Shown in pieces: positions 1-54,001 of a DNA stretch of 64,000 nucleotides. The number at the start of each line of letters is the position of its first letter. Within the stretch, counting starts at the first letter, position 1. This stretch comes from Pyrinomonadales bacterium. Its GTDB lineage: Bacteria > Acidobacteriota > Blastocatellia > Pyrinomonadales > Pyrinomonadaceae. Made by a program: the position numbers and the translations under genes. The stretch covers positions 16,182 through 80,181 of the forward strand of contig JBBRPZ010000011.1 of NCBI GenBank assembly GCA_038227175.1, written 5' to 3'. The notes beneath the pieces are model-generated. The model ran no database searches and was not told the DNA's origin. It worked only from the letters and a program-made list of their open reading frames with translations.

Positions 1-2278
1 CGACGGTGGCGTCAACATTACCTACGACCGCGGCAAGACGTGGGATTATGCGAATACGATTCCGATCGGACAGTTTTACGAGGTCGGTGCCGATAACGGT
101 ATGCCGTACAAGATCTGCGGCGGTCTTCAGGACAATAATGTGTGGTGCGGGCCGAGTATGTCGTTCAATCCACGTGGAATCACCAACGACGATTGGTACA
201 CGATCGGCGGCGGCGACGGATTTTACGCCCAGCCCGATCCGAACGATACAAATATCGTTTACACCGAATCGCAGGATGGCAATGTGCTTCGCCGAAACAC
301 GTTAACGGGCGAGAATAAGGGCATTCGCCCACAGGAAGACGAAGGCGAAAAGCCTTACCGCTTTCAATGGAATTCGCCGATCGTTATCTCGGCCTACGAT
401 TCGAATACAGTCTACTACGGCGGCAACTTCCTATTTAAATCGACGAATCGCGGCGACGGTTGGACAAAGATTGGCGGCGATCTGACGACTGGCGTCGACC
501 GAAACACTTTGTCCGTGATGGGCAAGGTGCCGGACAAGAATACACGTTCGCGTCATGACGGTGTGCAGAATTACCCCGCGATCACAGCGATCTCAGAGTC
601 GCCCGTGAACAAGAGTGTACTTTGGGTCGGAACCGACGATGGCAACTTACAGGTAACTCGTGATTCGGCGACCTGGAAGAATGTTGTTGACAAGGTCCCG
701 GGACTTGCGAAAGGGACTTATGTTTCGCGAGTTGTCGCTTCGCGTGAAAGCGAGGGTGCGGCGTACGCGACATTTGACGGCCACCGTTCGGGTGATTTCA
801 AGGTTTACGTTTACCGGACCACGGATTTTGGCGAGACTTGGACGTCGATCGGCTCAGGTCTGCCGCAAAATACAGGTATTGTACACGTCATTCGCGAACA
901 CCCTAGAAATACGAGTCTCCTGTTTGTCGGAACTGAGTTCGGCTTGTTCGCTTCGATTGATAAGGGCGCAAATTGGACGCAAATCCGACTGAACCTGCCG
1001 ACGGTGCCGGTTGACGATATTCTAATCCACCCGCGCGACAACGACATGATACTTGGAACCCATGGCCGCTCGATCTGGGTGATGGACGATATCACGCCTC
1101 TGATGCAGATGAATCAAAGCGTTCTCGATAGCAAGCTGTTCCTGTTTGATCCTCGTCAGGCTGTGATGTACCGCACATGGAGTAATAAAGATCTGACCTC
1201 GGATAAGGCTTTTTACGGTCAGAATCCGCCCAGCGGCGGCATTATTAATTTTTATTTGAAAGATAACCTTGCCGACCGCGAAAACATCTCGATCACGATC
1301 CTTGATTCTAAAGGTGCGACGATACGGACGCAGAACTGCACGCGGCCTAATCCACAGGCAGCTGCCGCAGCCGCGGCTGCTCTTGCCGTCGGTCGTCCAG
1401 GTGGCGGTGGAGGGGGTGGAGGAGGAGGCTTCGGATTTGGCGGTGGCGGCGGTGCACAGTGTAACGCGACCAAGGGCGTCAATCGATGGGTTTGGGATCT
1501 TAGAACTCGTCCAGCGGCAGTCCCCGGCGCCACTCCGGGAGCCGAGGGAGCACCGGGCGGTGGCGGTGGTGGTGGCGGTGGCGGAGGTGGATTTGGGGGA
1601 TTTGGAGCACAGGGCTTCCGCGTTGATCCGGGTGACTACACCGTTAAGATCAAGCTTGGCGATACCGAGTTCACAAAATCGATCAGGGTGCTGGAAGATC
1701 CGCGTATCAATTTCTCAATGGAGGATCGTGCCAAAAAACGGGCCGCTCTCAACAAGCTGCAGCCGCTTGTCACGCAGGCGCAGTTAGCGGCGGGACAAAT
1801 CACGGGACTGCGGACAAATCTGGTCGCCGCCATGGATGCTTGGAAACGGCCTGGTGCTACGCCGGTCCCGGACAACGTCAAGAAGGCAGCCGACGATCTT
1901 CTGAAGAAGATCGATGCGATCTATGTAAATTGGGGTACACCTCCCGGAAATGCCAACCCGATCGGCTCGGCCGGACCGCCGTTGGTCGAACTGCCGACGC
2001 CGCTCAGTCAGCGGGTCGCTCGATTATTGGGTGGTATCGAGGGTACCTCAAATGCTCCGACCGATTACGAATTGGCGCAGATCGATCTTCTCTCGAAGCG
2101 GATACCGGGCGCCGCTGATGAGGTACGCAAACTGGTGACAGAAGATCTGGCCGCTCTCAATACGATGATGAACGATGCCAAGATCCCGCATATTCAGCCT
2201 CCAGCGGCCGGATTTGGCGGCGGCGGACGTCGTCCCCCTGTCGATAACGATGATGACCCGGATCGTATCGATCCTTGA
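1..2278 (+). CDS. Sortilin/VPS10-like BNR (Asp-box) beta-propeller repeat protein, 5' end outside window
   Basis: The reading frame is open from nt 2 (DGGVNITYDRGKTWDY...), so the ATG at 101 is internal. Repeated Asp-box-like motifs are present (TNRGDGWTK, TTDFGETWT, IDKGANWT). It is a collinear paralog of the ORF at 43118..46363 (GTHGRSIWVMDD vs GTHGRSFWILDD). It contains two poly-Gly tracts. Confidence 0.8.
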   Translation, partial: DGGVNITYDRGKTWDYANTIPIGQFYEVGADNGMPYKICGGLQDNNVWCGPSMSFNPRGITNDDWYTIGGGDGFYAQPDPNDTNIVYTESQDGNVLRRNTLTGENKGIRPQEDEGEKPYRFQWNSPIVISAYDSNTVYYGGNFLFKSTNRGDGWTKIGGDLTTGVDRNTLSVMGKVPDKNTRSRHDGVQNYPAITAISESPVNKSVLWVGTDDGNLQVTRDSATWKNVVDKVPGLAKGTYVSRVVASRESEGAAYATFDGHRSGDFKVYVYRTTDFGETWTSIGSGLPQNTGIVHVIREHPRNTSLLFVGTEFGLFASIDKGANWTQIRLNLPTVPVDDILIHPRDNDMILGTHGRSIWVMDDITPLMQMNQSVLDSKLFLFDPRQAVMYRTWSNKDLTSDKAFYGQNPPSGGIINFYLKDNLADRENISITILDSKGATIRTQNCTRPNPQAAAAAAAALAVGRPGGGGGGGGGGFGFGGGGGAQCNATKGVNRWVWDLRTRPAAVPGATPGAEGAPGGGGGGGGGGGGFGGFGAQGFRVDPGDYTVKIKLGDTEFTKSIRVLEDPRINFSMEDRAKKRAALNKLQPLVTQAQLAAGQITGLRTNLVAAMDAWKRPGATPVPDNVKKAADDLLKKIDAIYVNWGTPPGNANPIGSAGPPLVELPTPLSQRVARLLGGIEGTSNAPTDYELAQIDLLSKRIPGAADEVRKLVTEDLAALNTMMNDAKIPHIQPPAAGFGGGGRRPPVDNDDDPDRIDP

Positions 2279-3429: not shown

Positions 3430-4692
3430 ATGGAAAAGGAAGTTTCAAACAAAAATTATGCAGAGCAGATGGATGCAACCGATCTCCTGCGAGGCTTTCG
3501 TAAGCGATTTCACATTCCGCGAGGTGCCAATGGCGAAGAGGTTATCTATTTCACCGGCAACTCGCTCGGGCTGATGCCAAAAAGGGCCCGTGGCTACGTC
3601 GAGCAGGAATTGTTGGACTGGGAAACGCTCGGGGTCGAGGCACATGTCAAGGCAAAGACGCCGTGGCTACCGTATCACGAATTCCTAACGGCACAGATGG
3701 CGGCGATCATCGGAGCTAAACCGATCGAGACCATCGTGATGAATGCGCTAACAATCAATCTCCATCTGATGCTCGTATCGTTTTATCGGCCGGATGCGTC
3801 GAGGCGTAAGATCGTGATCGAAAAAGGTGCGTTCCCGTCAGATCAATACGCGGTCGAATCACATATACGCTTTCATGGATATGAGCCGCGAACGGAGTTG
3901 ATCGAGATGTCGCCCCGAGTGGGCGAATCGACATTGCGTACTGAAGACATTGTGGGCCGGATCGAGCGCGATGGCACCGAGATCGCATTGATCCTGCTGG
4001 GCGGCGTTAATTATTACAGCGGACAGGCTTTTGATATGGCTTCGATCACCGAGGCCGGGCATAAGTCGGGAGCGGTCGTTGGGTTTGATCTGGCGCATGC
4101 GGCGGGAAATATCGAGCTGAAAATGCATGACTGGAACGCGGATTTCGCGGCATGGTGTTCGTACAAATATCTCAACGGCGGGCCCGGAGCGGTCGCCGGG
4201 GCGTTTATTCACGAGCGTCATTCGCGTTCGTTCGACCTGCCGCGATTTGCGGGCTGGTGGGGACACGATAAGGAAACACGGTTTCTGATGGGCCCGCAAT
4301 TTCGTCCGATCGCCGGTGCCGAAGGCTGGCAGATCTCAAATCCGCCGATACTACAGATGGCCGCCCTAAGAGCCTCGCTGGAGATTTTTGAAGAGGCCGG
4401 AATGCCCGCATTGGTAGAAAAATCACGCCGCCTCACAGGATACCTTGAACGCCTGATCAACGAGATCGCGGACGGCCGAATTTCGATCATTACGCCGCCG
4501 GATCCGGCGCAGCGAGGCTGTCAGCTTTCGATCTATGTCGGTGACAAAGGGCTGCACGAGCGGATCGTCGCACGCGGCGTCTTTGCCGACTGGCGTGAGC
4601 CAGGCGTGATCCGCGTTGCCCCTGCGCCATTGTATAACTCATTCACTGATGTATTTCGATTTAGCGAGGTACTAAAGGATTGTCTTCGATGA
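3430..4692 (+). CDS. kynU: Kynureninase (PLP-dependent)
   Basis: FTGNSLGLMPK, the PLP-lysine motif CSYKYLNGGPG, FAGWWGH and RVAPAPLYNSF. The start lies 2 nt after the ACMSD stop. Confidence 0.92.
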   Translation: MEKEVSNKNYAEQMDATDLLRGFRKRFHIPRGANGEEVIYFTGNSLGLMPKRARGYVEQELLDWETLGVEAHVKAKTPWLPYHEFLTAQMAAIIGAKPIETIVMNALTINLHLMLVSFYRPDASRRKIVIEKGAFPSDQYAVESHIRFHGYEPRTELIEMSPRVGESTLRTEDIVGRIERDGTEIALILLGGVNYYSGQAFDMASITEAGHKSGAVVGFDLAHAAGNIELKMHDWNADFAAWCSYKYLNGGPGAVAGAFIHERHSRSFDLPRFAGWWGHDKETRFLMGPQFRPIAGAEGWQISNPPILQMAALRASLEIFEEAGMPALVEKSRRLTGYLERLINEIADGRISIITPPDPAQRGCQLSIYVGDKGLHERIVARGVFADWREPGVIRVAPAPLYNSFTDVFRFSEVLKDCLR

Positions 4693-5047: not shown

Positions 5048-6505
5048 ATGTCGAAACCCGTGATCATTATTGGGGCAGGATTGGCCGGTTCGCTGCTTGC
5101 GATCAATCTCGCAAAACGCGGGATCGCGGTTGATGTGTACGAATCTCGCGGGGACATGCGGTTCGACGAAGTCGCGGCCGGGCGTTCCATTAATCTCGCC
5201 TTGTCAGATCGCGGGATCGCGGCGCTTCGCGAGGTTGGCATGGACGAATATATGCTTTCCGAGGCAGTGCCGATGTACGGGCGGATGATCCACGCTGTTG
5301 ACGGGCAAACTCGTCTGCTGCCGTATTCTGGTCGAAAGGGCGAATATATCAATTCGGTGTCACGAGCGGGCCTCAATATCGCCCTGATAAACGAGGCCGA
5401 AAAACATGCCGGTGTAACGTTTCATTTCAACGAGCGATGCGTCGATTTTGACTGCAAGACTGGCGAGACTCGATTTTCGCGCGGTGCAGTTGTTTCCGGC
5501 GATACTGTGATCGCGACCGACGGAGCGGGCTCGGCGGTGCGTAATGCTATGCTGCACGGCGGCGTTGAGCGATTTGATTTTTCGCAGACTTGGCTTGAAC
5601 ATGGCTACAAAGAATTGCATATTCCGGCTGCGGGTATTAGGGTTCAACCACCCGCTACCGCAGGTGGTGCTGACCTGGAGAAAAATGCCCTTCACATCTG
5701 GCCGCGGCATAAATTCATGATGATTGCTCTGCCTAATTTTGACGGCAGCTTTACGGGAACTCTGTTTTTGGCGCACGAGTCAGAACCCGCTACGTCAGCG
5801 GAGGGCAAAAACCGTGAGCAAATCTCAACGTCCGCTCCGCGCTCTCACGCAGGCGGTTCTGACAACGCCGCGTTCGACCATCTAGCCGGCGAACGGGACG
5901 TGGTCGACTTCTTTAACCGCGAATTTCCCGACGCGGTTCCACTGATGCCAACTCTCGTGGGAGATTTCTTCGATAACCCCACAGGCAATCTCGGCACGAT
6001 CAAATGTTTCCCTTGGAACGCGGGCGGCAAGGCGCTTCTGCTTGGCGATTCGGCCCATGCGGTTGTGCCGTTTTATGGGCAGGGGATGAACTGTGCTTTC
6101 GAAGATGTCCGCGTGCTCGACCAGCTTATGGTAAAGCATGGAACCGATTGGGAAACCGTTTTCGCGGAATACGGCCAACTTCGTAAAGTAAACACCGACG
6201 CGATCGCCGACATGGCCGAGGAAAATTTCTACGAAATGCGCGACTCGGTCGCCGACCCTGTTTTTGTCCGCAAACGCGAACTCGAAACCAAGCTCGAACA
6301 GACCTATCCCGACTATTTCTCAAAATACTCGATGGTCACATTTCGGCAAGACCTGCCTTATTCGGTCGCAAAGCAACGCGGGAATGCTCAGGACCAGTTG
6401 CTGATGGAGATTTGTGCTGGTGTTAAAAATGTAAGTGATCTCGATCTGAACGACGTTCACGCGAGAATTCTCGGTATAACATACGAAATGAGCAATGACG
6501 ATTGA
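5048..6505 (+). CDS. kmo: Kynurenine 3-monooxygenase (FAD-dependent)
   Basis: GAGLAGS dinucleotide-binding motif, DRGIAALREVGM, LHIWPR..FMMIALPN, VVDFFNREFPDA and GDSAHAVVPFYGQGMNCAFED match KMO. It carries two repeat-derived inserts (see findings). Confidence 0.9.
   Translation: MSKPVIIIGAGLAGSLLAINLAKRGIAVDVYESRGDMRFDEVAAGRSINLALSDRGIAALREVGMDEYMLSEAVPMYGRMIHAVDGQTRLLPYSGRKGEYINSVSRAGLNIALINEAEKHAGVTFHFNERCVDFDCKTGETRFSRGAVVSGDTVIATDGAGSAVRNAMLHGGVERFDFSQTWLEHGYKELHIPAAGIRVQPPATAGGADLEKNALHIWPRHKFMMIALPNFDGSFTGTLFLAHESEPATSAEGKNREQISTSAPRSHAGGSDNAAFDHLAGERDVVDFFNREFPDAVPLMPTLVGDFFDNPTGNLGTIKCFPWNAGGKALLLGDSAHAVVPFYGQGMNCAFEDVRVLDQLMVKHGTDWETVFAEYGQLRKVNTDAIADMAEENFYEMRDSVADPVFVRKRELETKLEQTYPDYFSKYSMVTFRQDLPYSVAKQRGNAQDQLLMEICAGVKNVSDLDLNDVHARILGITYEMSNDD
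5646..5674. repeat. Single-arm copy of the GTCAGAAC-family palindromic element, inside the kmo CDS
   Basis: aaccacccgctaccgcaggtggtGctgac differs by 1 nt from 27556..27584 (aaccacccgctaccgcaggtggtTctgac). It has an internal accacc/ggtggt stem. Confidence 0.85.
5779..5863. repeat. Full-length GTCAGAAC...GTTCTGAC element inside the kmo CDS
   Basis: It starts gtcagaacccgctacgtcagcggagggc and ends cgctctcacgcaggcggttctgac. The termini are inverted and resemble both arms of the 27487..27584 element and of 53929..53995. Confidence 0.7.
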
Positions 6506-7265
6506 TCTCGAAAAACTGGCTTTTTCGATCGATATCTCGATCCCGCTGAGGTTCAACGGGCCGCAGCCGAATGCTTACGGAGTCGAGCCGGCAAGATCGA
6601 AGGCGTGTGAGTCAGGCGACATGGTTGGCGATACGCGGCGAGGGGGCAGCGTTAATTTTGAAAAATACACGCTGATACCGCACTGCAACGGCACCCATAC
6701 GGAATGTGTCGGGCATATCACAAAAGAGCGGACCTCAGTTCGCGATTGTTTGAAAGATGTGTTTATCCCAGCCGTGCTGGTGTCGGTTGAGGCTGAAAAT
6801 GTTGAAGGCGAAAGCGTCTTGACCAAAGCTGGGTTGATGAATGCTATAGGAGCCCTTACTTACGTGCGGGCTACTGACACGAAGCCGATGGCATTGATCG
6901 TAAGGACGCTGCCAAATGATGAGAGCAAACTGACCCGTGTTTATGACGCCGAAAACATCCCGCCGTATTTTGCGTCCCAGGCTATGGAATTTATTGTCGC
7001 AGCAGGTTTTAGGCATCTGCTCGTCGATGTGCCGTCGATCGACCGAATTTTTGATGAAGGAAGACTCACGAACCACCGCATCTTTTGGAACGTGGAACCG
7101 GGCAGCTTTGAAATAAACGCCGCGACCCGAATAAACAGCACGATCACGGAGTTGATCTGCGTCCCAGAAACGGTCGTTGACGGCGAATATTTGTTGAATC
7201 TGCAGATCGCTCCTTTTGAGGCTGATGCCGCGCCGAGCCGTCCGGTACTTTTTAAGATTTATTAA
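6495..7265 (+). CDS. Cyclase-family protein, putative kynurenine formamidase (divergent)
   Basis: HCNGTHTECVGH resembles the HxGTHxDxPxH cyclase/KynB motif, with one extra residue and D>E. It overlaps the kmo stop by 11 nt, so it is in the same operon. Confidence 0.55.
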   Translation: MTIDLEKLAFSIDISIPLRFNGPQPNAYGVEPARSKACESGDMVGDTRRGGSVNFEKYTLIPHCNGTHTECVGHITKERTSVRDCLKDVFIPAVLVSVEAENVEGESVLTKAGLMNAIGALTYVRATDTKPMALIVRTLPNDESKLTRVYDAENIPPYFASQAMEFIVAAGFRHLLVDVPSIDRIFDEGRLTNHRIFWNVEPGSFEINAATRINSTITELICVPETVVDGEYLLNLQIAPFEADAAPSRPVLFKIY

Positions 7266-7403: not shown

Positions 7404-7489
7404 TTGCCGCAGATTAACACAGATCTACGCAGATAAGAGCCAGCAAACATTTTTCTGATCTGCGTATATCCGCGTTCATCTGCGGTTAA
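7404..7489. repeat. Word-array hairpin element (gcagat words)
   Basis: Left arm ttgccgcagattaacacagatctacgcagataag. Right arm ctgatctgcgtatatccgcgttcatctgcggttaa, which is its imperfect reverse complement. Confidence 0.8.
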
Positions 7490-8728: not shown

Positions 8729-8796
8729 CAGATTTACGCGGATGAACACCGATTATAAGAAAAACCAAATTATCTGCGTCAATCGGCGTTAATCCG
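8729..8796. repeat. Word-array hairpin element
   Basis: cggatgaacaccgatt (8739-8754) pairs with aatcggcgttaatccg (8781-8796). It contains the ttatctgcgtcaatcggcg string, which is also present at 60230-60248. Confidence 0.65.
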
Positions 8797-9159: not shown

Positions 9160-9728
9160 GAATTGCCACTAGCTTTAGCTACTGGAAAAGTGTGAACAAA
9201 ATCCGGGCTTTAGCCCAATCATTATTGTCCGTCGGTGATGCGTTTGAATCCACCTCGCGCCAGAAAATCTTCAAATTCTTCGTTAAAAGGGCGGGTTGGT
9301 GTTCTTCCTGGGAGTCGATATATTTACGCACATTAGGCAGAACTGATTCGCTCACCGAGACAACGAAGTACTCGTCCTGCCAATGGAATTTGCCGCGACA
9401 CATCTGTTGCTTGTTTATCCAGAATGAAGATTCACCCTTGAGTAGCCGCATTATGTCATCGATAGTTTGTCCTGAACCGAGAGAAATAAGGCAGTGTACA
9501 TGTTCTACCCAGCCATTGAGAGCACCGATGAAGATGTCTTTAGCTCGAGCATTTTTACGGATGTGGTCAAAGACCTTGTGGCGGATGGATTCGGTTAACA
9601 AAGGTTCCCGATCCTTTGTGGTCCACACAAAATGTAACCATACGCTTATGTGAGGCATAAGTATGTTTGGGCTAAAGCCCGGAATTAGTTTTCTAAACTA
9701 ACCCACTAGCTAAAGCTAGTGGCAATTC
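9160..9728 (-). mobile_element. RAYT unit: Y1 transposase gene bracketed by inverted double-hairpin REP-like repeats
   Basis: The left end 9160-9217 (gaattgccactagctttagctactgg...tccgggctttagccca) is the reverse complement of the right end 9668-9728 (tgggctaaagcccgga...ccactagctaaagctagtggcaattc). Confidence 0.8.
9179..9658 (-). CDS. REP-associated tyrosine transposase (IS200/IS605 TnpA-like Y1 transposase)
   Basis: HISVWLHFVWTTKDREPLL and VEHVHCLISL (HUH-type motif) with a later Y-containing helix. No tnpB is adjacent. Confidence 0.85.
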   Translation of the reverse strand: MPHISVWLHFVWTTKDREPLLTESIRHKVFDHIRKNARAKDIFIGALNGWVEHVHCLISLGSGQTIDDIMRLLKGESSFWINKQQMCRGKFHWQDEYFVVSVSESVLPNVRKYIDSQEEHQPALLTKNLKIFWREVDSNASPTDNNDWAKARILFTLFQ

Positions 9729-9764: not shown

Positions 9765-11357
9765 TTAGTCTGTTTCTTCTTTGAGTGCCCGTTTGTAAAT
9801 CTTGCCGGTGCGGCCGAGTGGCAGTTCGTCGCGAAATTCGACGTGACGCGGATATTTATTGGCGGCGATCTGGGTTTTACACCATTCGATGAACTCGGTT
9901 TTGGTAAGCTCAGCGTCTTTATTGAGCACGACGAAGGCCTTGACCTCTTCGCCGAGGCGGTCGTCATGCACGCCGATCACGGCACAAAGAGAGATGGCCG
10001 GATGGGTGATGATGACCTCTTCGAGTTCGCGGGGATAGATGTTGTAGCCGCCGCGAAGGATCATGTCTTTTTTGCGGTCAACGATGGCGAGATAACCTTC
10101 GTTGTCCATAGTACCGATGTCGCCTGTGTGAAACCAGCCGTTGCGAAACGCCTCGGCGGTGGCCTCGGGGCGCTTGTAATAGCCTTTCATAACGTTGGTC
10201 CCGCGAATGACGATTTCGCCACGCTCGCCGCGGGGCACCTCGGTGTCGTTCTCGTCAAAGCACCGCACATCGACGCCGAAGATCGGCTGGCCTACCTTGC
10301 CGGGTTTTGAGACTTGTTCAAAATGATTAAATGTCGCGAGCGGCGACGTTTCCGAAAGGCCGTAGCCCTCCATCACGCGGACGCCGAATTTCTCCTGAAA
10401 ATCCAGCATAACCTCGACCGGCATCGGTGCTCCGCCGGAGGTGCAGACTTTCATGTTGTCGGCGATGTGACTGACGTCGTAGTCGTTATCCTCAGCATAT
10501 TTTAGCAGCGACCAAAACATCGCCGGGACGCCTACCCAGAAATTCACCTTCTCCGCGACCATCGTATCGAGCGTAGTTTTGGCGTCAAAGCGCGGGAGCA
10601 GCACGACGCGGTTGCCGCCGTAGAGATTGGTGTTCATTTGCACGGTCTGTCCCGTGGTGTGAAACAGCGGCAGCGTGATCAGAACCGTTTTTTGTTTGCC
10701 ATCCGTAAAATCAAGCACTGGCAAATGAATACCCCAGCCCGTGACGACGTTAGACCAGAGATTGAGGTGCGTCAATTCGGCTCCTTTAGGCTGACCGGTC
10801 GTACCCGAGGTGTACAGGATCGCACAAGTGTCGTCGGGCCGCGTCGGGTAGATGTCGAATTTGCCCGATTTATCGGCGGTAATCTGCGTCAGCGTTTTAT
10901 GTTCAAGGAATGGACTCGCACCCATGATGTCGCTGGTCATCACGACAAGATGCTCACATGTCTCGACCTCGTCAAACGCCGTCTTGGTCGATTTGGCGAG
11001 CGGCAGTTCGTCGGTGCCTTCGTAGACAAATACGGCCTTTGCTTCGGAATCACGCAGGTGATAGGCGATTTCGCGGGGCGTAAAAAGCACGCAAATCGGC
11101 ACAACGGCGGCACCGGCCTTCATAATTCCATAATAGACGATCGGGAAATAGGGAAGATTTGTGCAGTTGAGCGCGACCTTGTCGCCGTAGCCAATGCCCA
11201 TTTCCGTCAATGCATTTGCGATGCGGTTTGACATCGCGTCGAGTTGCCCAAACGTCAGCCGCACGTCGTTCCACACGATCGCCTCTTTTTGCGGAGACAG
11301 CCGCGCGTGGTGCGAGATTATCGAGGCTAAATTTAAAGTCGTAGCCGAGTTTTGCAT
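9765..11357 (-). CDS. AMP-dependent acyl-CoA synthetase/ligase (long-chain fatty acid-CoA ligase-like)
   Basis: YTSGTTGQPKG AMP-binding motif, GYGLSETSP, GWFHTGD, and C-terminal GKIYKRALK. Confidence 0.88.
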   Translation of the reverse strand: MQNSATTLNLASIISHHARLSPQKEAIVWNDVRLTFGQLDAMSNRIANALTEMGIGYGDKVALNCTNLPYFPIVYYGIMKAGAAVVPICVLFTPREIAYHLRDSEAKAVFVYEGTDELPLAKSTKTAFDEVETCEHLVVMTSDIMGASPFLEHKTLTQITADKSGKFDIYPTRPDDTCAILYTSGTTGQPKGAELTHLNLWSNVVTGWGIHLPVLDFTDGKQKTVLITLPLFHTTGQTVQMNTNLYGGNRVVLLPRFDAKTTLDTMVAEKVNFWVGVPAMFWSLLKYAEDNDYDVSHIADNMKVCTSGGAPMPVEVMLDFQEKFGVRVMEGYGLSETSPLATFNHFEQVSKPGKVGQPIFGVDVRCFDENDTEVPRGERGEIVIRGTNVMKGYYKRPEATAEAFRNGWFHTGDIGTMDNEGYLAIVDRKKDMILRGGYNIYPRELEEVIITHPAISLCAVIGVHDDRLGEEVKAFVVLNKDAELTKTEFIEWCKTQIAANKYPRHVEFRDELPLGRTGKIYKRALKEETD

Positions 11358-11400: not shown

Positions 11401-12981
11401 CTATACAGCACGGGCGGTGTCAAAATTCATTTGCGGTGTCGAGAAAATGTCCTCGCCAAGCCGCTGGACCGAGTGCGTTCGCCATTCTTCGTGCCGCTCG
11501 GGAAAGTCCGAGCGAAAATGCCCGCCACGTGACTCTTCGCGCCAGAGAGCGGCGGTGGCGACGAGCTTTGCCAGCGTCACAAACTTTCGCGACGAGGTGC
11601 TCAAATTACCCGCCGCTATCTGATCGAATTCTTTCAGAGCCCGGCGAAGCGAATCGCGGTCGCGGATAATGCCGACGCGATCCCACATCACGCGTTTGAT
11701 ACGCTTGCGAACCGCCGTGCTCAGTGCGGAGTGCGAAGTGCGGAGTGCGGAGTCATCGGAAACATACTGCCGACTGCCTACCGCAAACTGCCTACTGTCT
11801 TCTGCGGCGGCCTGGCCCGCTCTCGCACCAAAAACCAGCCCTTCGAGCAGGGAATTCGACGCCAGGCGATTTGCTCCGTGGACGCCGGTACACGTCACCT
11901 CGCCCGCGGCATAAAGTCCCGGCAGCGTGCTTCGGCCCCACAGGTCGGTGCGGATGCCGCCCATGCAGTAATGCGATGCGGGCGAGACCGGGAGCAGGTC
12001 TTTTGCGATATTGAGGCCGAAGGCGGAGCAAGTGGCGTAAATCGTGGGGAATCGATGTTTCAAAAATTTCTGATCGAGCGCCGTCATGTCGAGAAAAACG
12101 TTGCGCGTTCCGGTCCGCCGCATTTCGGCGACGATCGAGCGTGAGACGATGTCGCGGGGAGCGAGTTCGAGGCGTTCATCGTAACGCGGCATAAAGCGTT
12201 CGCCGTATTTATTTCTCAGTATGCCGCCCTCGCCGCGCATCGCCTCGGTCAGCAGAAATCGCGGGGCTCGTTCGAGATCGAGAGCCGTCGGGTGAAACTG
12301 GACGAATTCCATATCCGCCATCTCGGCACCCGCAAAATACGCCATCGCCATGCCGTCGCCGGTCGCCACCGGCGGGTTCGTCGTGTGCATATAGAGCTGT
12401 CCGGCACCGCCGGTACACATGATCACGGCCTTCGCGTGGAGTTCGCGCGGAGTACGCAAAACGGGGTCGCGAAACCGCACGCCAACGCATCTGTCGTCGT
12501 TGATGATCAGGCTCTCGGTATTAGCAAAAGGCGTCAGATTAATCGCTTTTTCCGCACCGGCCCGAGCGATCAACGAACGGACAAATTCCGCTCCCGTCGA
12601 ATCGCCATGCGCGTGCAAAATACGCCGTCTTGAATGGGCCGCCTCCTGTCCCATCAACAGTTTGCCACCCTCGCGGTCAAACTCGGTGCCCCAATCGATA
12701 AGCTGATTGATGTATTTTGTCCCTTCGGTAACTAGCGTCTCGACTGCCTTTGTATCGCACAAACCTGCACCGGCAACGAGCGTGTCATCCTCGTGCAGTT
12801 CGGCGTTATCGTCCTCAGCAAGTACCACCGCAACACCGCCCTGGGCATATTCCGTGTTCGATTCGCTGGCTTTATCTTTGGTGAGAACCGCCACCCGCGC
12901 GCCGTTCGTAGCCAACTCAATAGCCGCACGCAACCCCGCAACGCCGCTGCCGATCACGATAAAGTCCGTTTCGAGAGACAT
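11401..12981 (-). CDS. nadB: L-aspartate oxidase
   Basis: DFIVIGSGVAGLRAA FAD motif directly after Met at 12981, then YAQGG, HPTAL, RGEGG and NRLASNSLLEGLVFG. The ORF extension to 13104 has no homology-like sequence. Confidence 0.9.
   Translation of the reverse strand: MSLETDFIVIGSGVAGLRAAIELATNGARVAVLTKDKASESNTEYAQGGVAVVLAEDDNAELHEDDTLVAGAGLCDTKAVETLVTEGTKYINQLIDWGTEFDREGGKLLMGQEAAHSRRRILHAHGDSTGAEFVRSLIARAGAEKAINLTPFANTESLIINDDRCVGVRFRDPVLRTPRELHAKAVIMCTGGAGQLYMHTTNPPVATGDGMAMAYFAGAEMADMEFVQFHPTALDLERAPRFLLTEAMRGEGGILRNKYGERFMPRYDERLELAPRDIVSRSIVAEMRRTGTRNVFLDMTALDQKFLKHRFPTIYATCSAFGLNIAKDLLPVSPASHYCMGGIRTDLWGRSTLPGLYAAGEVTCTGVHGANRLASNSLLEGLVFGARAGQAAAEDSRQFAVGSRQYVSDDSALRTSHSALSTAVRKRIKRVMWDRVGIIRDRDSLRRALKEFDQIAAGNLSTSSRKFVTLAKLVATAALWREESRGGHFRSDFPERHEEWRTHSVQRLGEDIFSTPQMNFDTARAV
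11725..11797. repeat. Two 4 x 7-bp word arrays inside nadB
   Basis: gtgcgga gtgcgaa gtgcgga gtgcgga, then a 14-nt spacer, then ctgccga ctgccta ccgcaaa ctgccta. Confidence 0.8.
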
Positions 12982-14261: not shown

Positions 14262-14777
14262 TCACGAGAAAATTTCTTCCACGATCTGCTTTGCGACCTG
14301 GTATGACGTGTAGTCCGAGCGGACGATAAAATGCCAATCGGCGAGGCAATAGACCTTTTGCCGCTCCTCAAAGAGTTGTCGCGTCACGGTTTTGTTACGC
14401 GCAAGTGGTCGGTCCTTACGTGAGTAGGTGATGTTGAGCCAGCAGTGCTCGAACGAAGATTCGAGCCAGACGGTGGTGAAGCCACTCGCTTTTAGCAGGT
14501 CGCGGTTGGCGGGAACGGTCCACGTGCCGCCGCCTAAGCTTAGGATATTAGAATCCATCTCGTTTAGGACTCGTTCAAGATTTTGCGATTCGAGCGTGCG
14601 GTAAAATTCGATGCCATCCTGGTCAATAATATCTGCCACGACGCGACCGGCGTTTTGCTCGATGACCCGGTCGAGATCCACCCACCGGCACTTCATCACA
14701 TGAGCAAGGTGACGCGCGACGCTAGATTTCCCGACGCCCATAAAACCCGTTAATGCTATGCGAGTGTCTTTACTCAT
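14262..14777 (-). CDS. aroK: Shikimate kinase
   Basis: GFMGVGKSSVARHLA P-loop, about 170 aa, adjacent to aroA. Confidence 0.88.
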   Translation of the reverse strand: MSKDTRIALTGFMGVGKSSVARHLAHVMKCRWVDLDRVIEQNAGRVVADIIDQDGIEFYRTLESQNLERVLNEMDSNILSLGGGTWTVPANRDLLKASGFTTVWLESSFEHCWLNITYSRKDRPLARNKTVTRQLFEERQKVYCLADWHFIVRSDYTSYQVAKQIVEEIFS

Positions 14778-14790
14778 TTAAGATAATTTG

Positions 14791-14973
14791 ACCGCGAAAT
14801 ACGCGAAAAGACGCGAAAAAAAAGATATGACTTTGCCCGCAAATAACGCGAATAACCGCGAATCAAGAATTATAGAAACGTCTATCTGCCTTTTATTCTT
14901 ATTCGGGAATATTCGCATAATTCGCGGGCAAATATATCGTTCCCTTTTTCGCGTCTTTTCGCGTATTTCGCCG
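14791..14973. repeat. Nested 183-bp palindromic element between aroA and aroK
   Basis: The outer arms are 27 bp and perfect: gcgaaatacgcgaaaagacgcgaaaaa (14794-14820) against 14945-14971. The inner arms are tttgcccgcaaataacgcgaataaccgcgaat (14832-14863) against 14901-14932. Confidence 0.9.
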
Positions 14974-16281
14974 TTAAGCCTCTTTTCCTACGACCGAAGC
15001 AAGCGTATCAAAAAATCCGGGAAATGAGATATCCGCACAGTCCGCGCCCATGATCTCGGTTTCGCCGGTCGCGAACAGACCGGCAACCGCGAAGGCCATT
15101 ACTATGCGGTGATCGCCGAATGAGTCTATCACCGCCCCATTGAGATCGGACCGCTCAACCTTAAATCCATCCGGGAATTCCTCGACCGCCGCGCCCATTC
15201 GTCGCAGATTTTCAACGATTGCGGCAATTCTATCGGATTCCTTAACCCGAAGCTCGGCCGCGTCGCGTATCTCAAGGCCGCCCTCGATTTGCGTTCCGAA
15301 GATCGCGAGGATTGGGATTTCGTCTATGAGAATGGCGACTGTGGGGCCATTTATCAGGTTCGATCCCGGTTTTTTGGGGCCGTAAATATTTCCCTGCGCC
15401 CGAATCGTGGCGACCGGCTCGTTGTTCACCTCGCGCTGATCCGACAATTGTAGATCGACGCCGAGATCGCAGAGGACTTCGAAAATCGCCGCCCGGCTCG
15501 CGTTAAATCCCACATTTGGAAGCGATACATCAGATCCATTCAAACACGCCGCCGCGACCATAAAAAACGCGGCCGACGAGATGTCTGATGGAACGATCAG
15601 GTCACGGGCCGTGAGCGTTGCGTCGCCTGAAACGGTAATTCGCGACCCGCCCATCGATTCCTCGACCGCGACATCGACGCCAAACCAACGCAGCATTCGC
15701 TCTGTATGGTCGCGGGTCTGGATGGTTTCGAGGACGGACGTTTCGCCATCCGCATTGAGCCCGGCAAGCAAGACGCACGATTTTATCTGGGCCGAGGCGA
15801 CGGGCGGCTGATATTCGATAGCGGTCAGCGGCTGCTTGCCGGAAATGTTGAGCGGTGCGCGGCCCTCGTCTGACGTGATCTCGGCTCCCATTTTTGTGAG
15901 CGGTTCGATAACCCGGTTCATCGGCCTTTTCTGGATCGATTCGTCCCCGACCAAAACAGACAAGAAATTTTGCCCGGCCACAATGCCGGAAAGCAGACGC
16001 ATCGTCGTGCCGCTGTTGCCGCAATCCAATGGCCCCGACGGCGGCGAAAAGCCTGTTTTGCCAACACCATTCACGACCACGAGATTGCCGTCGCGAGCTA
16101 TCGTGACGCCCAGAGATTGGAGACATGAGAGGGTCGACGAGCAGTCTTCGCTGGTCGCAAAATTGTCGATTCGAGTCTCGCCAATGGCGATTGCGGATAG
16201 CATTGCGGCCCGGTGCGATATTGATTTGTCACCCGGCAGCCGGACGGTTCCACGCACGTGTGATGCGGGTTTGATCTTCAT
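14974..16281 (-). CDS. aroA: 3-phosphoshikimate 1-carboxyvinyltransferase (EPSP synthase)
   Basis: LPGDKSISHRAAML, NSGTTMRLL, and RVKESDRIAA. ATG 16281 (MKIKPAS...) is preferred over 16326. Confidence 0.92.
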   Translation of the reverse strand: MKIKPASHVRGTVRLPGDKSISHRAAMLSAIAIGETRIDNFATSEDCSSTLSCLQSLGVTIARDGNLVVVNGVGKTGFSPPSGPLDCGNSGTTMRLLSGIVAGQNFLSVLVGDESIQKRPMNRVIEPLTKMGAEITSDEGRAPLNISGKQPLTAIEYQPPVASAQIKSCVLLAGLNADGETSVLETIQTRDHTERMLRWFGVDVAVEESMGGSRITVSGDATLTARDLIVPSDISSAAFFMVAAACLNGSDVSLPNVGFNASRAAIFEVLCDLGVDLQLSDQREVNNEPVATIRAQGNIYGPKKPGSNLINGPTVAILIDEIPILAIFGTQIEGGLEIRDAAELRVKESDRIAAIVENLRRMGAAVEEFPDGFKVERSDLNGAVIDSFGDHRIVMAFAVAGLFATGETEIMGADCADISFPGFFDTLASVVGKEA

Positions 16282-19836: not shown

Positions 19837-20736
19837 ATGTCATCCGAACCGTTTCGCAGCGGCTATGTCGCGCTCATAGGCCGGCCGAATGCCGGAAAAT
19901 CTACGCTCATCAATCGCCTTGTTGGCGAAAAGATCGCCGCTGTTTCCAACAAACCGCAAACCACGAGGCATCGCATCAAAGGAATTGTTAACCGCGAAGG
20001 TGGCCAGATCGTCTTCATCGACACGCCGGGCGTGCACAAGCCGGGGCATCTGCTCAACCGGCGGATGATGTCGGCGGTGCATGACGCAATAATGTCGGTC
20101 GATCTGATCGTGCTAATGCGTGACGCGAGCGTTTCGACGGGGAATGGCGACCGGTTTGTGTTCGAGCTGGTAAAGCAGGCCGAAAAGCCGAGCGTGCTCG
20201 TGCTCAATAAGATCGATAAGCTCCACGACAAAGCAGCGCTGCTGCCGCTCATAGAGAGTTATTCGACGGAATTCGAATTTGACGAGATCATCCCTATTTC
20301 CGCCCTCATGGGCTCTGGACAAGACACGCTTCTCGACCAGATCGTTAAACATCTGCCGCCGGGCGAGCCGATATTCGCGGACGACGAAATGACCGATCAA
20401 TCGATGCGGGTCATCGCCTCCGAGATGGTACGGGAAAAGATCCTTGCGACGACTGGTGAGGAGATCCCGTATGTGACGGCGGTCGTGACGGAGGTTTTTG
20501 ACGAGACCGAGCCAGGCTTGACGCGGATATTTTGTGCGATCTACGTTGAGCGTTCGTCGCAGAAAAAGATAGTCATCGGCAAGCAAGGCTCGCGAATCAA
20601 GGATATCGGAACCAAGGCGCGCCTCGATATTGAAAAACTGCTGGGCAAGAAAGTTTTCCTAAAACTCTTCGTAAAGGTCGTCGAGGATTGGCGTAACCGC
20701 GAACGGGACCTCGATGATATAGGTATTCACGAATGA
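19837..20736 (+). CDS. era: GTPase Era
   Basis: GRPNAGKST (G1), DTPG (G3), NKID (G4), and a C-terminal KH domain (GKQGSRIKDIG). Confidence 0.93.
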   Translation: MSSEPFRSGYVALIGRPNAGKSTLINRLVGEKIAAVSNKPQTTRHRIKGIVNREGGQIVFIDTPGVHKPGHLLNRRMMSAVHDAIMSVDLIVLMRDASVSTGNGDRFVFELVKQAEKPSVLVLNKIDKLHDKAALLPLIESYSTEFEFDEIIPISALMGSGQDTLLDQIVKHLPPGEPIFADDEMTDQSMRVIASEMVREKILATTGEEIPYVTAVVTEVFDETEPGLTRIFCAIYVERSSQKKIVIGKQGSRIKDIGTKARLDIEKLLGKKVFLKLFVKVVEDWRNRERDLDDIGIHE

Positions 20737-21671
20737 ACGACACCAGCGAAAAAAAATGGCTCGCCGTCGACATCGAGACCTCTGCGGACGCTGTAGATGC
20801 GGTCGAGTACGCTTTGAACGCGCTCGACGCCCTCGGCACGGAGATCGACAGTCTGAGAAAATCCGCCGATGAAAGTCAGCGTGTTACCGGCTATTTTCAC
20901 CAGCTGCCGGACGCCGAAGAATTGAGCCGCGAGATCGATCTGGGATTAAAGATCTACGATCAGCCAGCCGCGACGGTTTACGCGATTGCGATGCGCGAGG
21001 TGCTGGACGCCGATTGGCTCGCCGAATGGAAACGCCACTGGAAGCCGACCGAGATCGGCAAATTTATCATCGCCCCGCCGTGGTCGGATGTCGCCGAAAC
21101 CGACAAGATCGTCATCCGGATCGAGCCAAATATGGCCTTTGGAACCGGCACGCACGAAACAACACAGCTATGTTTGACGGCGATAGGTGAAAATTACCGC
21201 AACGGCCAGACGTTCCTCGACATCGGCACGGGAACGGGTATTTTAGCGATAGCGGTTGCGAATTTAGCCACTGAGTACACAGAGAAAGATGAGAGAAGAA
21301 ATCAAAATTATCTCCCTAACTCGGTGCCCTCTGTGGCTAAAATTCTTGCTTGTGATACCGACGTGGACTCGGTCAAGATCGCGAAAGTGAATGCCGATGC
21401 AAATGGTGTAGGCGGGTTGATCGAGTTTTTCGATGGCTCGATCTCGGACGCTACGCCGGTCTTTGATTTTGTTTGTGCAAATTTGACGATCGACGTGATC
21501 GTGCCGATTTTGCCGATGCTGATCGACAAGACGAAAAGCATCTTATTGCTTTCGGGGGTCCTTGCAGAGCAGGAATCTGTCATCACAACCGAACTTTTGA
21601 AATTTTACATTTCAAACTTTGAAATTACAAAAGCCGGCGAGTGGATCTCGGCGCTGATACGAAAGGTTTAG
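20733..21671 (+). CDS. prmA: Ribosomal protein L11 methyltransferase
   Basis: W..HWKP, MAFGTGTHETT, and the LDIGTGTGILAIA SAM motif. ATGA overlap with era. It contains an 84-bp repeat-derived insert. Confidence 0.88.
   Translation: MNDTSEKKWLAVDIETSADAVDAVEYALNALDALGTEIDSLRKSADESQRVTGYFHQLPDAEELSREIDLGLKIYDQPAATVYAIAMREVLDADWLAEWKRHWKPTEIGKFIIAPPWSDVAETDKIVIRIEPNMAFGTGTHETTQLCLTAIGENYRNGQTFLDIGTGTGILAIAVANLATEYTEKDERRNQNYLPNSVPSVAKILACDTDVDSVKIAKVNADANGVGGLIEFFDGSISDATPVFDFVCANLTIDVIVPILPMLIDKTKSILLLSGVLAEQESVITTELLKFYISNFEITKAGEWISALIRKV
21261..21344. repeat. 84-bp word-array hairpin element inside prmA, in frame
   Basis: aatttagccactgagtacacagag...ctcggtgccctctgtggctaaaatt. The termini are TTTAGCCAC/GTGGCTAAA, as in the element at 28911-28986. 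Confidence 0.85.
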
Positions 21672-21732
21672 AGTGCAAATTTTAGTTTGTCTCTTAACTT
21701 AGGAGAAACAAACTAAAGTTTGCACTCTAAAC
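21666..21732. repeat. Long hairpin (about 28-bp stem) between the convergent prmA and BNR-protein stops
   Basis: gtttagagtgcaaattttagtttgtctc, a 9-nt loop, then gagaaacaaactaaagtttgcactctaaac. There is no U-tract, and each arm holds a CTTTAG/CTAAAG-centred palindrome. Confidence 0.85.
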
Positions 21733-21733
21733 A

Positions 21734-23779
21734 TTAGTTAGGCTTTTTGGCGGGAGATGGAGCAGGAACCGCGATCGGAATATCGCCGTCATCCGTGATC
21801 GTAACGAGCGGGATGCGAGATTTGGGTTTCAAACGCGGGCCGGCGTTTTTTAGGACTGGCGGGCCGCCTTTGGGGAGGCTGATATTTACCGGCGCGAGCG
21901 ATTCAGTCCGTTTCAGCATCGTGCCGCCGCGCCCGCCGATCCACACGCGGTTACCGCCGCGAAAGACGACTGCTTGCAGGAGTTTGCTGGTGATATTTGG
22001 CTGTACAGCCCACGTCGTGCCACCGTCGTCCGTTAACAGTACACTGCCTAATTCGCCGACCGCGATCGCCGCGTTTCGCCCAAACGCTTGGATGGCGAAT
22101 AAATTCAGCTTTACGGCCGATTCCTTATCAGTCCAAGTCTGCCCGCCGTCCGTCGTTCGCAGCGTGATGCCGCCGGCCCCGACCGCAAAGCCCGAGCGGT
22201 TGTCGAAAAAACTGACCGCGTAAAGATTTTCGCGGACATTTGTCTTAACCTTTTCCCAGGTCGCGGCCCCGTCGCTGGTTCGCAAGATCGTACCCTTGTC
22301 GCCGACCGCGACGCCGTGTTTATCGTCAAAAAATTTTACATCTTCGAGCCATAGATGACTGCCGGATTCGACCTTTCTCCATTGAATGCCGGCAGAATCC
22401 GTCCGCAGTACCATTCCACCCGCACCGACGGCAAAACCGGTTGTGTCGGAGACAAAATTCACGGCTGACAGGTCTTCCGTAACGCCTGAAGTGTTTTTGC
22501 TCCAGCTTGCTCCACCATTTGACGTGGCCAAAATCGTGCCACCGTCACCAACGATCCAGCCTCGTTGCCCGTCGATGAAAAAAACGGAATTCAGATTTTC
22601 CTGCGTGTCCGAAAAAGCTGGCAGCCAACTGACGCCCGCGTCATTCGTGATCCATATCCGGCCGTGCGACCCGACCGCGACGCCGATCTCGTCGTTTAGA
22701 AAGGTCAGGTCATTGACATCTTCGCGGCCACCTTCGCTCAGGCGCTGCCAGCTGAAACCGCCATCGTCGGTCCTGAGCATCAATCCGTTTTCACCGACGG
22801 CCCAACCAGTGAATTTGTCACCATAGTAGACGCTCACGAGCTTTGGATTTGTCCGGACGTTGAACGGCAGCCACGACCTCCCGCCGTCGCCTGTTACCCA
22901 TACCATGCCGTTCGCATCGGTCATCGAGCCGTTTGCAGCGTCGGCAAACGAGATCGAAAGCAGATCGGCGTGGCTGAAAATATTGATGCGTGACCATGTC
23001 TGACCCGCGTCGTCGCTGCGGGCGACGCAGCCGTCGTAGCCCGCGGTTATGATCGCAGTCGGAGACAAAAAGGCCGAGCCCGAGACGATGGTGCCGGAGC
23101 AGGGATCGGAAATCTTCCACTTCTCGCCGCCATCGGCGGTCGTCAAAACAACCCCGTTGACTCCCGATGCCACGGCGTGCAGCTCGTCAAGCGCATTGAC
23201 ATTTAATAGCTGTTCGGTCGTGCCGGAATTCTGCGGTTTCCACGTCTGTCCGCCGTCGACAGTTTTGAGGAGCCGGCCGTAGGTTCCGCTGATCCAACCC
23301 GTGTTACGCCCAGCCCCGGCAAACGTAATGCTGTAAAGATGATCGCGTGTATCGACCGCGACCCGCCGCCAATCTTTGCCTCCATTGCTCGTTGTAAGAA
23401 CCGTGCCCCGAGAGCCGACGACAAATGCGAAATCGGCATCACGCACGAAAACCGACGAAAACGTCGCATCGACCGGCGGCGTCTGTTTTGCCCAGCTAAA
23501 CCCGCCATCCTGGGTCCGAAGGATCGTGCCATCCGACCCAACTGCGAAGCCATTCTCCTTATCCGCCGCAAAATGAATTGAGTAAAGTGAGTTGCCCTGA
23601 GGCAAAGGATTTTGCCAGACCCAGCCCAGCCCGCCCCGTTGGGCCACTGCGACAGAAGAAGTGATTAACGCAAAGGCGCAAAGACGCAAAGAAAATGACG
23701 TCGTTCGGCCAACGAAACGCCTCGCCTCGCCTCTTCTCCTCTTCACCTTTTCTCCTCTTCCCGCCGTCCGATTTCCCAC
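21734..23779 (-). CDS. Ycf48/BNR-repeat beta-propeller protein (secreted)
   Basis: More than 10 repeats of the form G..G.IL.T.DGG.TW. The start is uncertain: the GTG at 23779 overlaps the rnhA stop, the N-terminal 40 aa are encoded by word repeats, and a TTG start nearer the signal peptide is possible. Confidence 0.75.
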   Translation of the reverse strand: MGNRTAGRGEKVKRRRGEARRFVGRTTSFSLRLCAFALITSSVAVAQRGGLGWVWQNPLPQGNSLYSIHFAADKENGFAVGSDGTILRTQDGGFSWAKQTPPVDATFSSVFVRDADFAFVVGSRGTVLTTSNGGKDWRRVAVDTRDHLYSITFAGAGRNTGWISGTYGRLLKTVDGGQTWKPQNSGTTEQLLNVNALDELHAVASGVNGVVLTTADGGEKWKISDPCSGTIVSGSAFLSPTAIITAGYDGCVARSDDAGQTWSRINIFSHADLLSISFADAANGSMTDANGMVWVTGDGGRSWLPFNVRTNPKLVSVYYGDKFTGWAVGENGLMLRTDDGGFSWQRLSEGGREDVNDLTFLNDEIGVAVGSHGRIWITNDAGVSWLPAFSDTQENLNSVFFIDGQRGWIVGDGGTILATSNGGASWSKNTSGVTEDLSAVNFVSDTTGFAVGAGGMVLRTDSAGIQWRKVESGSHLWLEDVKFFDDKHGVAVGDKGTILRTSDGAATWEKVKTNVRENLYAVSFFDNRSGFAVGAGGITLRTTDGGQTWTDKESAVKLNLFAIQAFGRNAAIAVGELGSVLLTDDGGTTWAVQPNITSKLLQAVVFRGGNRVWIGGRGGTMLKRTESLAPVNISLPKGGPPVLKNAGPRLKPKSRIPLVTITDDGDIPIAVPAPSPAKKPN

Positions 23780-27486: not shown

Positions 27487-27584
27487 GTCAGAACCGCCTA
27501 CGGTAGTGGGCGGTTGAAGATATTTGTCCACGGCGAACTTCGATAGGCCAAGTTAAACCACCCGCTACCGCAGGTGGTTCTGAC
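27487..27584. repeat. 98-bp GTCAGAAC-family double-hairpin element (MITE/BIME-like)
   Basis: The left arm gtcagaaccgcctacggtagtgggcggtt and right arm aaccacccgctaccgcaggtggttctgac are imperfect reverse complements. Each arm is itself a 7-bp-stem hairpin, and the spacer is 40 nt. Confidence 0.85.
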
Positions 27585-28965: not shown

Positions 28966-28986
28966 TCGTGTAATTCGTGGCTAAAA
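28911..28986. repeat. Word-array hairpin element (cacgaat words)
   Basis: ttttagccacgaatgacacaaata ... tatttgtggcattcgtgtaattcgtggctaaaa. Confidence 0.85.
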
Positions 28987-29058
28987 TTCCTTTCTTGAAA
29001 ACCCAGGTTACGTAGTTGTTTGTGCGATAAAATATTCATCAAATTCGGGTCACGGGAG

Positions 29059-31982: not shown

Positions 31983-31992
31983 TTAAGAATTT

Positions 31993-32079
31993 TTGCCCGC
32001 GAATAACGCGAATCATTGCGAATAGAACGCTTTGAATAGATTTCTCCTATTCGCGTTCATTAGCGTTATTCGCGGGCAA
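31993..32079. repeat. Word-array hairpin element filling the moxR-DUF58 spacer
   Basis: ttgcccgcgaataacgcgaatcattgcgaatag ... ctattcgcgttcattagcgttattcgcgggcaa. These are the same words as the inner arms at 14832-14932. Confidence 0.9.
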
Positions 32080-52893: not shown

Positions 52894-52954
52894 GTTCCAG
52901 GTTTAGGATTTTTTTCTTCAACTTGGAACTTTGAACTCGAAACTCGGAACTTTT
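52894..52954. repeat. Hairpin plus ggaact/gaaact word array between the convergent tlpA-like and NFACT genes
   Basis: gttccaggtt (52894-52903) pairs with aacttggaac (52920-52929). The array aacttggaactttgaactcgaaactcggaac encodes the last codons of the NFACT protein. Confidence 0.7.
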
Positions 52955-53915: not shown

Positions 53916-53928
53916 AAACCATGTGTCC

Positions 53929-53995: not shown

Positions 53996-54001
53996 GCCAC
54001 C

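Follow-up and report, generated by a model that had tools for sequence, protein, structure and literature searches.

Hairpin-forming repeats in frame in loops of kynurenine 3-monooxygenase from Pyrinomonadaceae

A kynurenine 3-monooxygenase (KMO) gene of a Pyrinomonadales bacterium (assembly GCA_038227175.1) contains two in-frame stretches of DNA that match a family of short hairpin repeats also found between genes (family A), and these inserts are very probably repeat-derived insertions tolerated in permissive loops of the protein. The gene occupies positions 5048-6505 (plus strand) of a 64,000-nucleotide (nt) stretch of contig JBBRPZ010000011.1, to which we refer as the window. It is an intact open reading frame (ORF) of 485 amino acids (aa) that holds both inserts and matches Pfam FAD_binding_3, and it is placed in the KMO family by full-length similarity to the solved KMOs of Pseudomonas fluorescens (E = 1.4e-84) and human (E = 1.8e-81) and by its FAD-binding and active-site motifs. 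The FAD-binding and catalytic/active-site motifs are unchanged in 76 orthologs, the window KMO among them. Kynureninase (3430-4692) and kynurenine formamidase/cyclase (6495-7265) are encoded next to it, together with a small gene of the glyoxalase family, and the kynureninase-KMO-formamidase neighbourhood is conserved in the syntenic loci L001 and L002. Another assembly, made separately from run SRR19962015, contains the same DNA with both inserts.

Repeat inserts and variable loops in KMO

The insert at site 1 (5642-5674, plus strand; GTTCAACCACCCGCTACCGCAGGTGGTgCTGAC) consists of one right arm of a family A hairpin and is translated as VQPPATAGGAD. Its positions 5646-5674 (AACCACCCGCTACCGCAGGTGGTGCTGAC) agree in 28/29 bases with positions 27556-27584 of an intact intergenic element, the same count as in the original prediction, which was made from the letters of the window, and the similarity extends slightly further (5642-5674 versus 27552-27584). 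At up to 3 mismatches these two matches stand alone in the window, and none appeared in 100 shuffles. The insert at site 2 (5779-5863, plus strand) is an 85-nt inverted doublet, GTCAGAACC...GGTTCTGAC, translated as (E)SEPATSAEGKNREQISTSAPRSHAGGSD. The window contains the nonamer GGTTCTGAC four times, versus 0.36 expected by chance, and all four occurrences are termini of 5779-5863 and of the intergenic element 27487-27584. The left arm of the site-2 insert matches the family A consensus at 20/29 positions and the right arm at 23/27, so that the insert is an old, decayed full copy of the family; the site-1 arm stays near the consensus. Folding gives a hairpin of -12.7 kcal/mol (z = -2.3) for the site-1 arm and -32.9 kcal/mol (z = -3.2) for the site-2 element. 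Neither insert brings a stop codon or a frameshift into the ORF. The claims that site 2 holds a full element with inverted termini and that both elements are read in frame within KMO are thus borne out, with the addition that the site-2 copy is decayed. A chance resemblance of low-complexity sequence was also considered and is excluded by the nucleotide identity of the inserts to intergenic copies.

Loop lengths were compared across the best 120 KMO homologs (70-79% identity, 441-524 aa), the closest of which are labelled Pyrinomonadaceae. The basal state of the loops is 10 aa at site 1 (e.g., ASPDGGFLLE) and 18 aa at site 2 (e.g., HKGDNGFDKLTDDVSLMH). In the window KMO the loops measure 18 and 45 aa, which is 8 and 27 aa more than in the insert-free ortholog P0077 and about what the original prediction had estimated (7-11 and ~29 aa). 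P0077 aligns to human and rat KMO with 1 gapped residue at site 1 and 3 at site 2, and to P. fluorescens KMO with 0 and 6; because its loops match those of the solved enzymes, the short state is the canonical KMO architecture. In a codon alignment of the window gene with the syntenic L001 (78% identity) and the insert-free L002, the repeat DNA appears as clean insertions: L002 has no site-1 arm, and its site-2 loop, like that of P0077, is 27 aa shorter.

Internal insertions of at least 5 aa are confined to three loops in the 120 orthologs. Hot spot 1, after P0077 residue 197, is filled in 63/120 orthologs (up to +34 aa); hot spot 2, after residues 238-239 and corresponding to site 2, in 102/120 (up to +56 aa); and hot spot 3, after residues 328-332, in 28/120 (up to +42 aa). 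The third is empty in the window KMO (aa ~365, VKHGTDWE) and elsewhere carries peptides of family A or E, e.g., SPPVLGGVDAVSADGVV. Among the 116 orthologs that could be classified, site 1 holds no insert in 55, family F in 13, family C in 10, family A in forward orientation in 8 and in reverse orientation in 7, and an unclassified insert in 23. Site 2 holds family B in 32, nothing in 21, family D in 16, family E in 15, family A in 14, mixed inserts in 5, and unclassified ones in 13. At least six repeat families fill the same loops, with family A inserted either way round and read in more than one frame, and this mixture in the same positions implies many independent insertions. Orthologs without repeats might have been equally long at both sites, which would have spoken against an insertion; instead, 15 of the 116 are insert-free at both, with loop lengths equal to those of the solved KMOs.

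An AlphaFold2 model of the window KMO reached a mean predicted local distance difference test score (pLDDT) of 67.5, a predicted template modelling (TM) score of 0.70, and TM scores of 0.70-0.75 to P. fluorescens KMO, a moderate quality due to the shallow alignment. Residues 174-215 and 241-274 are modelled with no secondary structure and with pLDDT below 50, and both inserts fall inside these regions, so that the model supports an unstructured loop for the inserts and nothing beyond that. The window KMO is most likely still a working enzyme in which two surface loops have become longer and disordered. Its predicted tryptic peptide across an insert junction is VQPPATAGGADLEK.

Repeat families inside and outside genes

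The reference copy of family A in the window is the intact intergenic element 27487-27584, 98 nt with two inverted arms, which adjoins the end of the ORF 24821-27466 (minus strand) and is covered by no long credible ORF. It folds as a near-perfect hairpin (-54.6 kcal/mol, z = -7.8). From 171 arms in the sampled loci we derived the consensus CCGCCCGCTACCGCAGGCGGTTCTGAC, in which ~10 bp pair as a stem around the loop TACC, one C·A mismatch is conserved, and the tag CTGAC follows 3' of the hairpin. Covariation maintains the hairpin: the free positions of the stem, 3 and 18, are G-C in 89 and A-T in 57 of the 171 arms. Arms are ~27-33 nt long and commonly occur singly, and the 56 full elements from the same loci range from 56 to 181 nt, with length peaks around 72-76, 89-98, and 121-122. 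Direct repeats of at least 3 nt, the mark of a target-site duplication, flank none of these 56 elements; 2-nt repeats flank four of them, versus 3.5 expected, and no conserved target motif was seen in their surroundings. The spacers between the arms are mostly unalignable across copies, except for one 94-nt size class (8/56) with a common spacer.

Scanning a species-representative genome collection with the degenerate arm pattern CCNCCNNCNNNNGNNGGNGGTTCTGAC returned at least 120 stretches. Among those listed, all but three strays come from Pyrinomonadaceae, Blastocatellia, 'Chloracidobacterium', or unclassified Acidobacteriota metagenome-assembled genomes (MAGs), so that, by the matches listed, family A is nearly restricted to the genomes of Pyrinomonadaceae and related Blastocatellia. 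Together with the Pyrinomonadaceae labels of the closest KMO homologs, this places the window most likely in that family. These stretches and the intergenic window copy also dispose of the concern that the inserted strings might not be repeated elsewhere. No Rfam family matches the elements (a sub-threshold hit to mir-361 was dismissed as a chance match), and in the literature we found no account of such repeats in Pyrinomonadaceae, Blastocatellia, or Chloracidobacterium.

Most family A arms lie outside genes. Counting an arm as intragenic when the open frame around it extends for at least 40 codons in both directions, we found 37/169 arms of the sampled loci (22%) in long open frames, compared with 69% of random 27-mers from the same DNA; 78% lie outside such frames, where 31% were expected. 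Each orientation of the arm has two stop-free frames, and the arm is a CCNCC...GGNGG palindrome, so that each orientation has a frame for Pro-Pro-Ala-x-Ala-Gly-Gly, a flexible peptide suited to loops. This is the frame used by 29 of the 37 intragenic arms.

The recurring peptide types among the KMO inserts are translated hairpin repeats that also occur outside genes. Family A yields QPPATAGGSD or SEPPAxAGG and, when inverted and read in a different frame, QNHLRERV. Family B yields GNLSGSEG...TLPTGRVSA; its intergenic copy in the window is an inverted doublet (53923-53997) between the ORFs 52918-53862 and 54002-55330, the right arm of which would translate as TLPNGRATD, and peptides of the type GNxSGSEG...TLPTGRVSA account for its 32 occurrences at KMO site 2. 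Family C, with the peptide KLQFV, is present between genes at 21663-21735, family D (NSFEEISRG.TQINADQ) near 7410 and 60167, family E (SPPYEGGV..ASADGVV) in loci L027, L073, and L118, and family F (NPVATAPGSD; DNA CCGGTCGCTACCGCTCCCGGTTCTGAC) in loci L044, L098, L107, and L114.

Several of these copies have features of their own. The family C copy is a palindrome with 32-nt arms between the convergent genes 20733-21671 (plus strand) and 21734-23779 (minus strand) and would translate as DKLKFA or NKLKFA, and the peptide type SNKLQFV..KLKFVG is seen at KMO site 1 in ~10 orthologs. Short repeats of the TTATCTGCGTCAATCGGCG type lie at 7456-7474, 8770-8788, 10870-10888, and 60229-60247, as well as near 7410 and 60167, and the copies at 8770-8788 and 60229-60247 are identical; copies near them translate as QINTD or QINAD, which corresponds to the NSFEEISRG.TQINADQ inserts at KMO site 2 of 16 orthologs. 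The window also contains intergenic inverted pairs of a TTTGCCCGCGAATAACGCGAAT... family (14774-14985 and 31979-32087; 33-nt arms, 88-94% complementary) and an AT-rich inverted repeat (28904-28993; 41-nt arms, 83% complementary, 8-nt loop) that overlaps the end of the ORF 27898-28965.

The kynurenine formamidase gene next downstream of KMO (6495-7265, plus strand; cyclase family, Pfam Cyclase) carries a repeat as well: a single family B arm (6852-6880, plus strand), read in frame as GALTYVRATD, whose complementarity to the left arm of the intergenic doublet (53923-53951) is 93% across 29 nt. Aligned orthologs have a hypervariable loop there (~aa 117-130), in which L001 has a family A arm (12194-12225, VQPPATAGGSD) and L002 reads FQPPAHAGGS; the solved Bacillus anthracis formamidase is ~14 residues shorter at this loop, in what is a weak alignment. 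About 15 other syntenic genes of these genomes have no insertion or deletion (indel) of at least 5 residues, save for a glycine-rich tract in one large protein. That protein is BNR/sortilin-like (ORF 101-2278), and at window positions 1400-1600 tracts of the GGTGGCGG type encode poly-glycine, of which the L001 ortholog has 12 residues fewer.

Three further observations concern the same genes and loci. The L001 formamidase (11860-12609) ends as ...LFLSEPPA* inside a family A arm (12591-12617), the repeat providing its last residues and its stop codon. P0106, a Pyrinomonadaceae protein of 729 aa, is annotated as a KMO-kynurenine formamidase fusion, and its formamidase part has the repeat-type peptide LPPSYAGG. 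In the insert-free genome, L002 18758-20099 encodes an EPSP synthase as two overlapping ORFs of 237 and 219 aa, which may reflect a frameshift or a sequencing error.

Origin and persistence of the inserts

We read family A, as the best explanation at hand, as short, hairpin-forming, non-autonomous selfish repeats, similar to repetitive extragenic palindromic (REP) sequences and to their two-arm doublets (REPINs), that have spread through Pyrinomonadaceae and related Blastocatellia. Copies would land across the genome without duplicating a target site. Those that hit genes would mostly be purged, and survivors would be the ones that add a multiple of three bases, keep a stop-free frame, and enter a loop tolerant of extra length. 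They would then decay by point changes and in-frame indels, and the window holds two such states, one near-consensus arm left at site 1 and a worn full element at site 2. The inserts are presumably translated and nearly neutral.

How the repeats move is a guess. Mobilisation by a single-strand route with a HUH/Y1 transposase, as for REPINs, is conceivable by analogy, and we hold it tentatively. The window has a Y1 (HUH) transposase gene (9179-9658, minus strand; 159 aa) that scores 89 bits against PF01797, 64.5 against an IS200 model, and 29 against a model of REP-associated tyrosine transposases (RAYTs; cut-off 80). Inverted repeats of 26 nt (9160-9185 and 9703-9728), with inner GGGCTTTAGCCC hairpins, flank the gene, and none of these hairpins belong to family A or B. 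In L001 and L002 the gap between the cytochrome c and AMP-ligase genes is ~120 nt and lacks the Y1 gene, and 9160-9728 is therefore a lineage-specific insertion. Used as a query against the sampled sequence, this transposase matched only one in L086 and a fragment in L081, both of them without family A arms at their sides; the L086 gene (1095-1550, 151 aa; region 1095-1800) has its own inverted hairpins as flanks. Downstream of it lies an array outside genes in which family A and family B arms alternate as in a bacterial interspersed mosaic element (BIME). A 159-aa ORF between two family A arms (L096 170-649) was examined as a cognate transposase and rejected, having no Pfam match.

Several points weigh against our reading. 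No cognate transposase flanked by family A arms and no RAYT was found in the 0.91 Mb of sampled sequence that the search covered, as opposed to whole genomes; a tblastn search of the same sequence with Escherichia coli RAYT also gave no match, though as a test this is weak. The unconserved spacers mean that the mobile unit could be the single arm, or that the doublets are secondary. Orthologs broken by out-of-frame insertions drop out of a set of full-length matches, which biases the KMO sample toward tolerated insertions. The AlphaFold2 model is only moderate and its low confidence spreads past the inserts, so we infer the surface exposure of the loops, and translation of the inserts and activity of the enzyme are predictions. 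Finally, an old neutral insert does not predict the near-identical site-1 arms of the window and L001, which share 27 identical nt where third codon positions of the two genes are only 50% alike. This is the longest identical run between the genes; conserved coding parts give runs of 26 and 23 nt, and the identity is suggestive, not decisive. It calls for a recent or independent insertion, gene conversion, or a constraint on the hairpin.

Recurrence at the loops could be mainly a matter of targeting and not of protein selection, with new elements entering, adjoining, or replacing resident ones by way of the CTGAC end, the hairpins, recombination, or gene conversion; a loop, once occupied, would then be colonised over and over. 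We regard this as possible though rather unlikely. It fits the near-consensus site-1 arms in two diverged genomes, the start of families A, B, and E at site 2 right after one and the same His-Lys/Glu codon pair, the composite A+B and B+E inserts, the alternating A/B arrays outside genes in L086, and the restriction of such indels to KMO and formamidase among the ~15 syntenic neighbours. Family D, however, enters the site-2 loop ~5-6 residues further downstream, after ENSFE; the junctions of family A at site 1 vary among orthologs (..GGSDFLLE, ..GGSDKFLLE, ..GGSDTRFLLE, ..GGADLE); the 56 full elements lack a shared flanking motif; and insert-free alleles are common, which makes the empty loop a frequent state. 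A stronger proposal, which we think unlikely, is that the related CTGAC-tagged hairpin families of Pyrinomonadaceae have evolved to be safe to translate, with a stop-free frame for a flexible Pro/Ala/Gly peptide in both orientations, and preferentially re-enter occupied loops, so that a few surface loops of housekeeping enzymes, KMO and formamidase among them, would act as cassettes with fast turnover. If true, it would amount to a lineage-wide, ongoing diversification of loops by selfish DNA, beyond the scale described for Rickettsia.

The inserts might instead be kept for a use, either as peptide loops that tune KMO or as mRNA or DNA hairpins in regulation (pausing, stability, protein binding). 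The site-1 arm forms a perfect hairpin and is the one conserved over 27 nt in the window and L001, stem positions covary throughout the family, and site 2 is occupied in most orthologs. Against this, unrelated families in both orientations and different frames, adding 0 to +56 aa, and the 15 insert-free orthologs show that KMO depends on none of these peptides or hairpins in particular; the window's own site-2 copy has decayed; and the covariation of the stem includes intergenic copies and is explained by the needs of the mobilising machinery. We therefore consider a use very unlikely. Even less credible is a damaged gene, be it a KMO inactivated by the insertions and eroding as a pseudogene or a misassembly at the repeats. 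Repeats can misassemble in MAGs and the confidence of the structural model is only moderate, but the ORF is full length and stop-free, with 78% identity to orthologs, invariant motifs, and a conserved operon. We reject an assembly artefact on the in-frame pattern in more than 100 independently assembled orthologs and on the identical DNA in the second assembly.

Significance and comparison with known repeat systems

Reports of in-frame palindromic repeats outside Rickettsia have so far been only sporadic. The present set, from free-living bacteria that are abundant in soil, amounts to a natural experiment on a very large scale, with more than 100 KMO orthologs that carry between 0 and +56 repeat-derived residues. 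It maps the positions of a fold that tolerate insertion, and it allows measuring the rate at which selfish DNA enters proteins and decays there. It also defines apparently undescribed repeat families and serves as a warning for the annotation of Acidobacteriota MAGs, in which peptides such as PPATAGGSD, TLPTGRVSA, SPPYEGG, and NSFEEISRG are footprints of repeats and not domains.

Protein-coding palindromic repeats were reportedly once called unique to Rickettsia by Ogata and colleagues. They are now established as Rickettsia palindromic elements (RPEs), enterobacterial repeat units (RU/ERIC, enterobacterial repetitive intergenic consensus), and Coxiella QMITEs (PMC10969869), and intragenic REPs coding for 20-30 aa occur in Opitutus terrae, Thauera, R. 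conorii, and others (Di Nocera et al. 2013, PMC3733652). RPEs are palindromes of ~100-150 bp that lie in frame in Rickettsia genes (Ogata et al. 2000, 2002, as cited in PMC10969869). The families described here share with them the occurrence of a palindromic family both between genes and in frame in housekeeping or metabolic genes, at places compatible with the fold, and the presence of several families per genome. The two marks of an RPE, a palindrome in many copies (171 arms and 56 full elements) and in-frame copies in genes that are absent from orthologs, are both present. Whereas RPEs belong to obligate intracellular bacteria, the repeats studied here are from another phylum (Acidobacteriota) and from free-living soil bacteria; they consist of arms of ~27-33 nt, often single, and doublets of 56-181 nt; and different families have repeatedly struck three loops of one enzyme across a bacterial family. 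The resemblance to RPEs proposed in the original prediction therefore stands for behaviour (in frame, in ordinary genes, in loops), and on the side of homology it is an analogy. The elements look rather like the REP/REPIN type, singlets or inverted doublets without target-site duplications, and their entry into KMO is recurrent and not a one-off.

REP, REPIN, and BIME elements are imperfect palindromes of 20-40 nt in many, mostly extragenic copies (PMC3116915; PMC3733652), mobilised by RAYT-type Y1 transposases (Bertels & Rainey 2011, PMC3116915; PMC3733652). Family A agrees with this description in its size, copy number, and mostly extragenic location; its 56 inverted doublets fold as long hairpins and lack target-site duplications, as REPINs do, and the L086 array mixes different arm types in the manner of a BIME. 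REPs carry a GTAG/CGTC tag at the end of the palindrome (PMC3733652), whereas family A has CTGAC 3' of the hairpin and GTAG/CTAC in the loop, which makes it doubtful that family A is a GTAG/CGTC-tagged REP. Family B reads GTCAGTAGC..., with GTAG adjoining the stem. With classical (DDE-type) miniature inverted-repeat transposable elements, family A shares terminal inverted repeats (GTCAGAACC...GGTTCTGAC), but membership fails on the target-site duplication, which family A lacks.

RU/ERIC (Delihas 2007, PMC2759123) and Coxiella QMITEs (PMC5896051) are likewise small and non-autonomous, with open frames and occasional in-frame fusions to host genes. They differ in being longer, with terminal inverted repeats and sporadic intragenic copies, whereas the repeats described here have no target-site duplications and variable spacers, and recur across orthologs at a very high rate. 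The small dispersed repeats of cyanobacteria, which Elhai et al. are said to have described in 2008, are reportedly short hairpins that sit in coding sequences and in each other, with different families at orthologous sites. Their lineage and sequences are unrelated to those of the families described here. The kind of phenomenon is thus known; what is unusual is its scale and its recurrence at three loops of an enzyme with solved structures.

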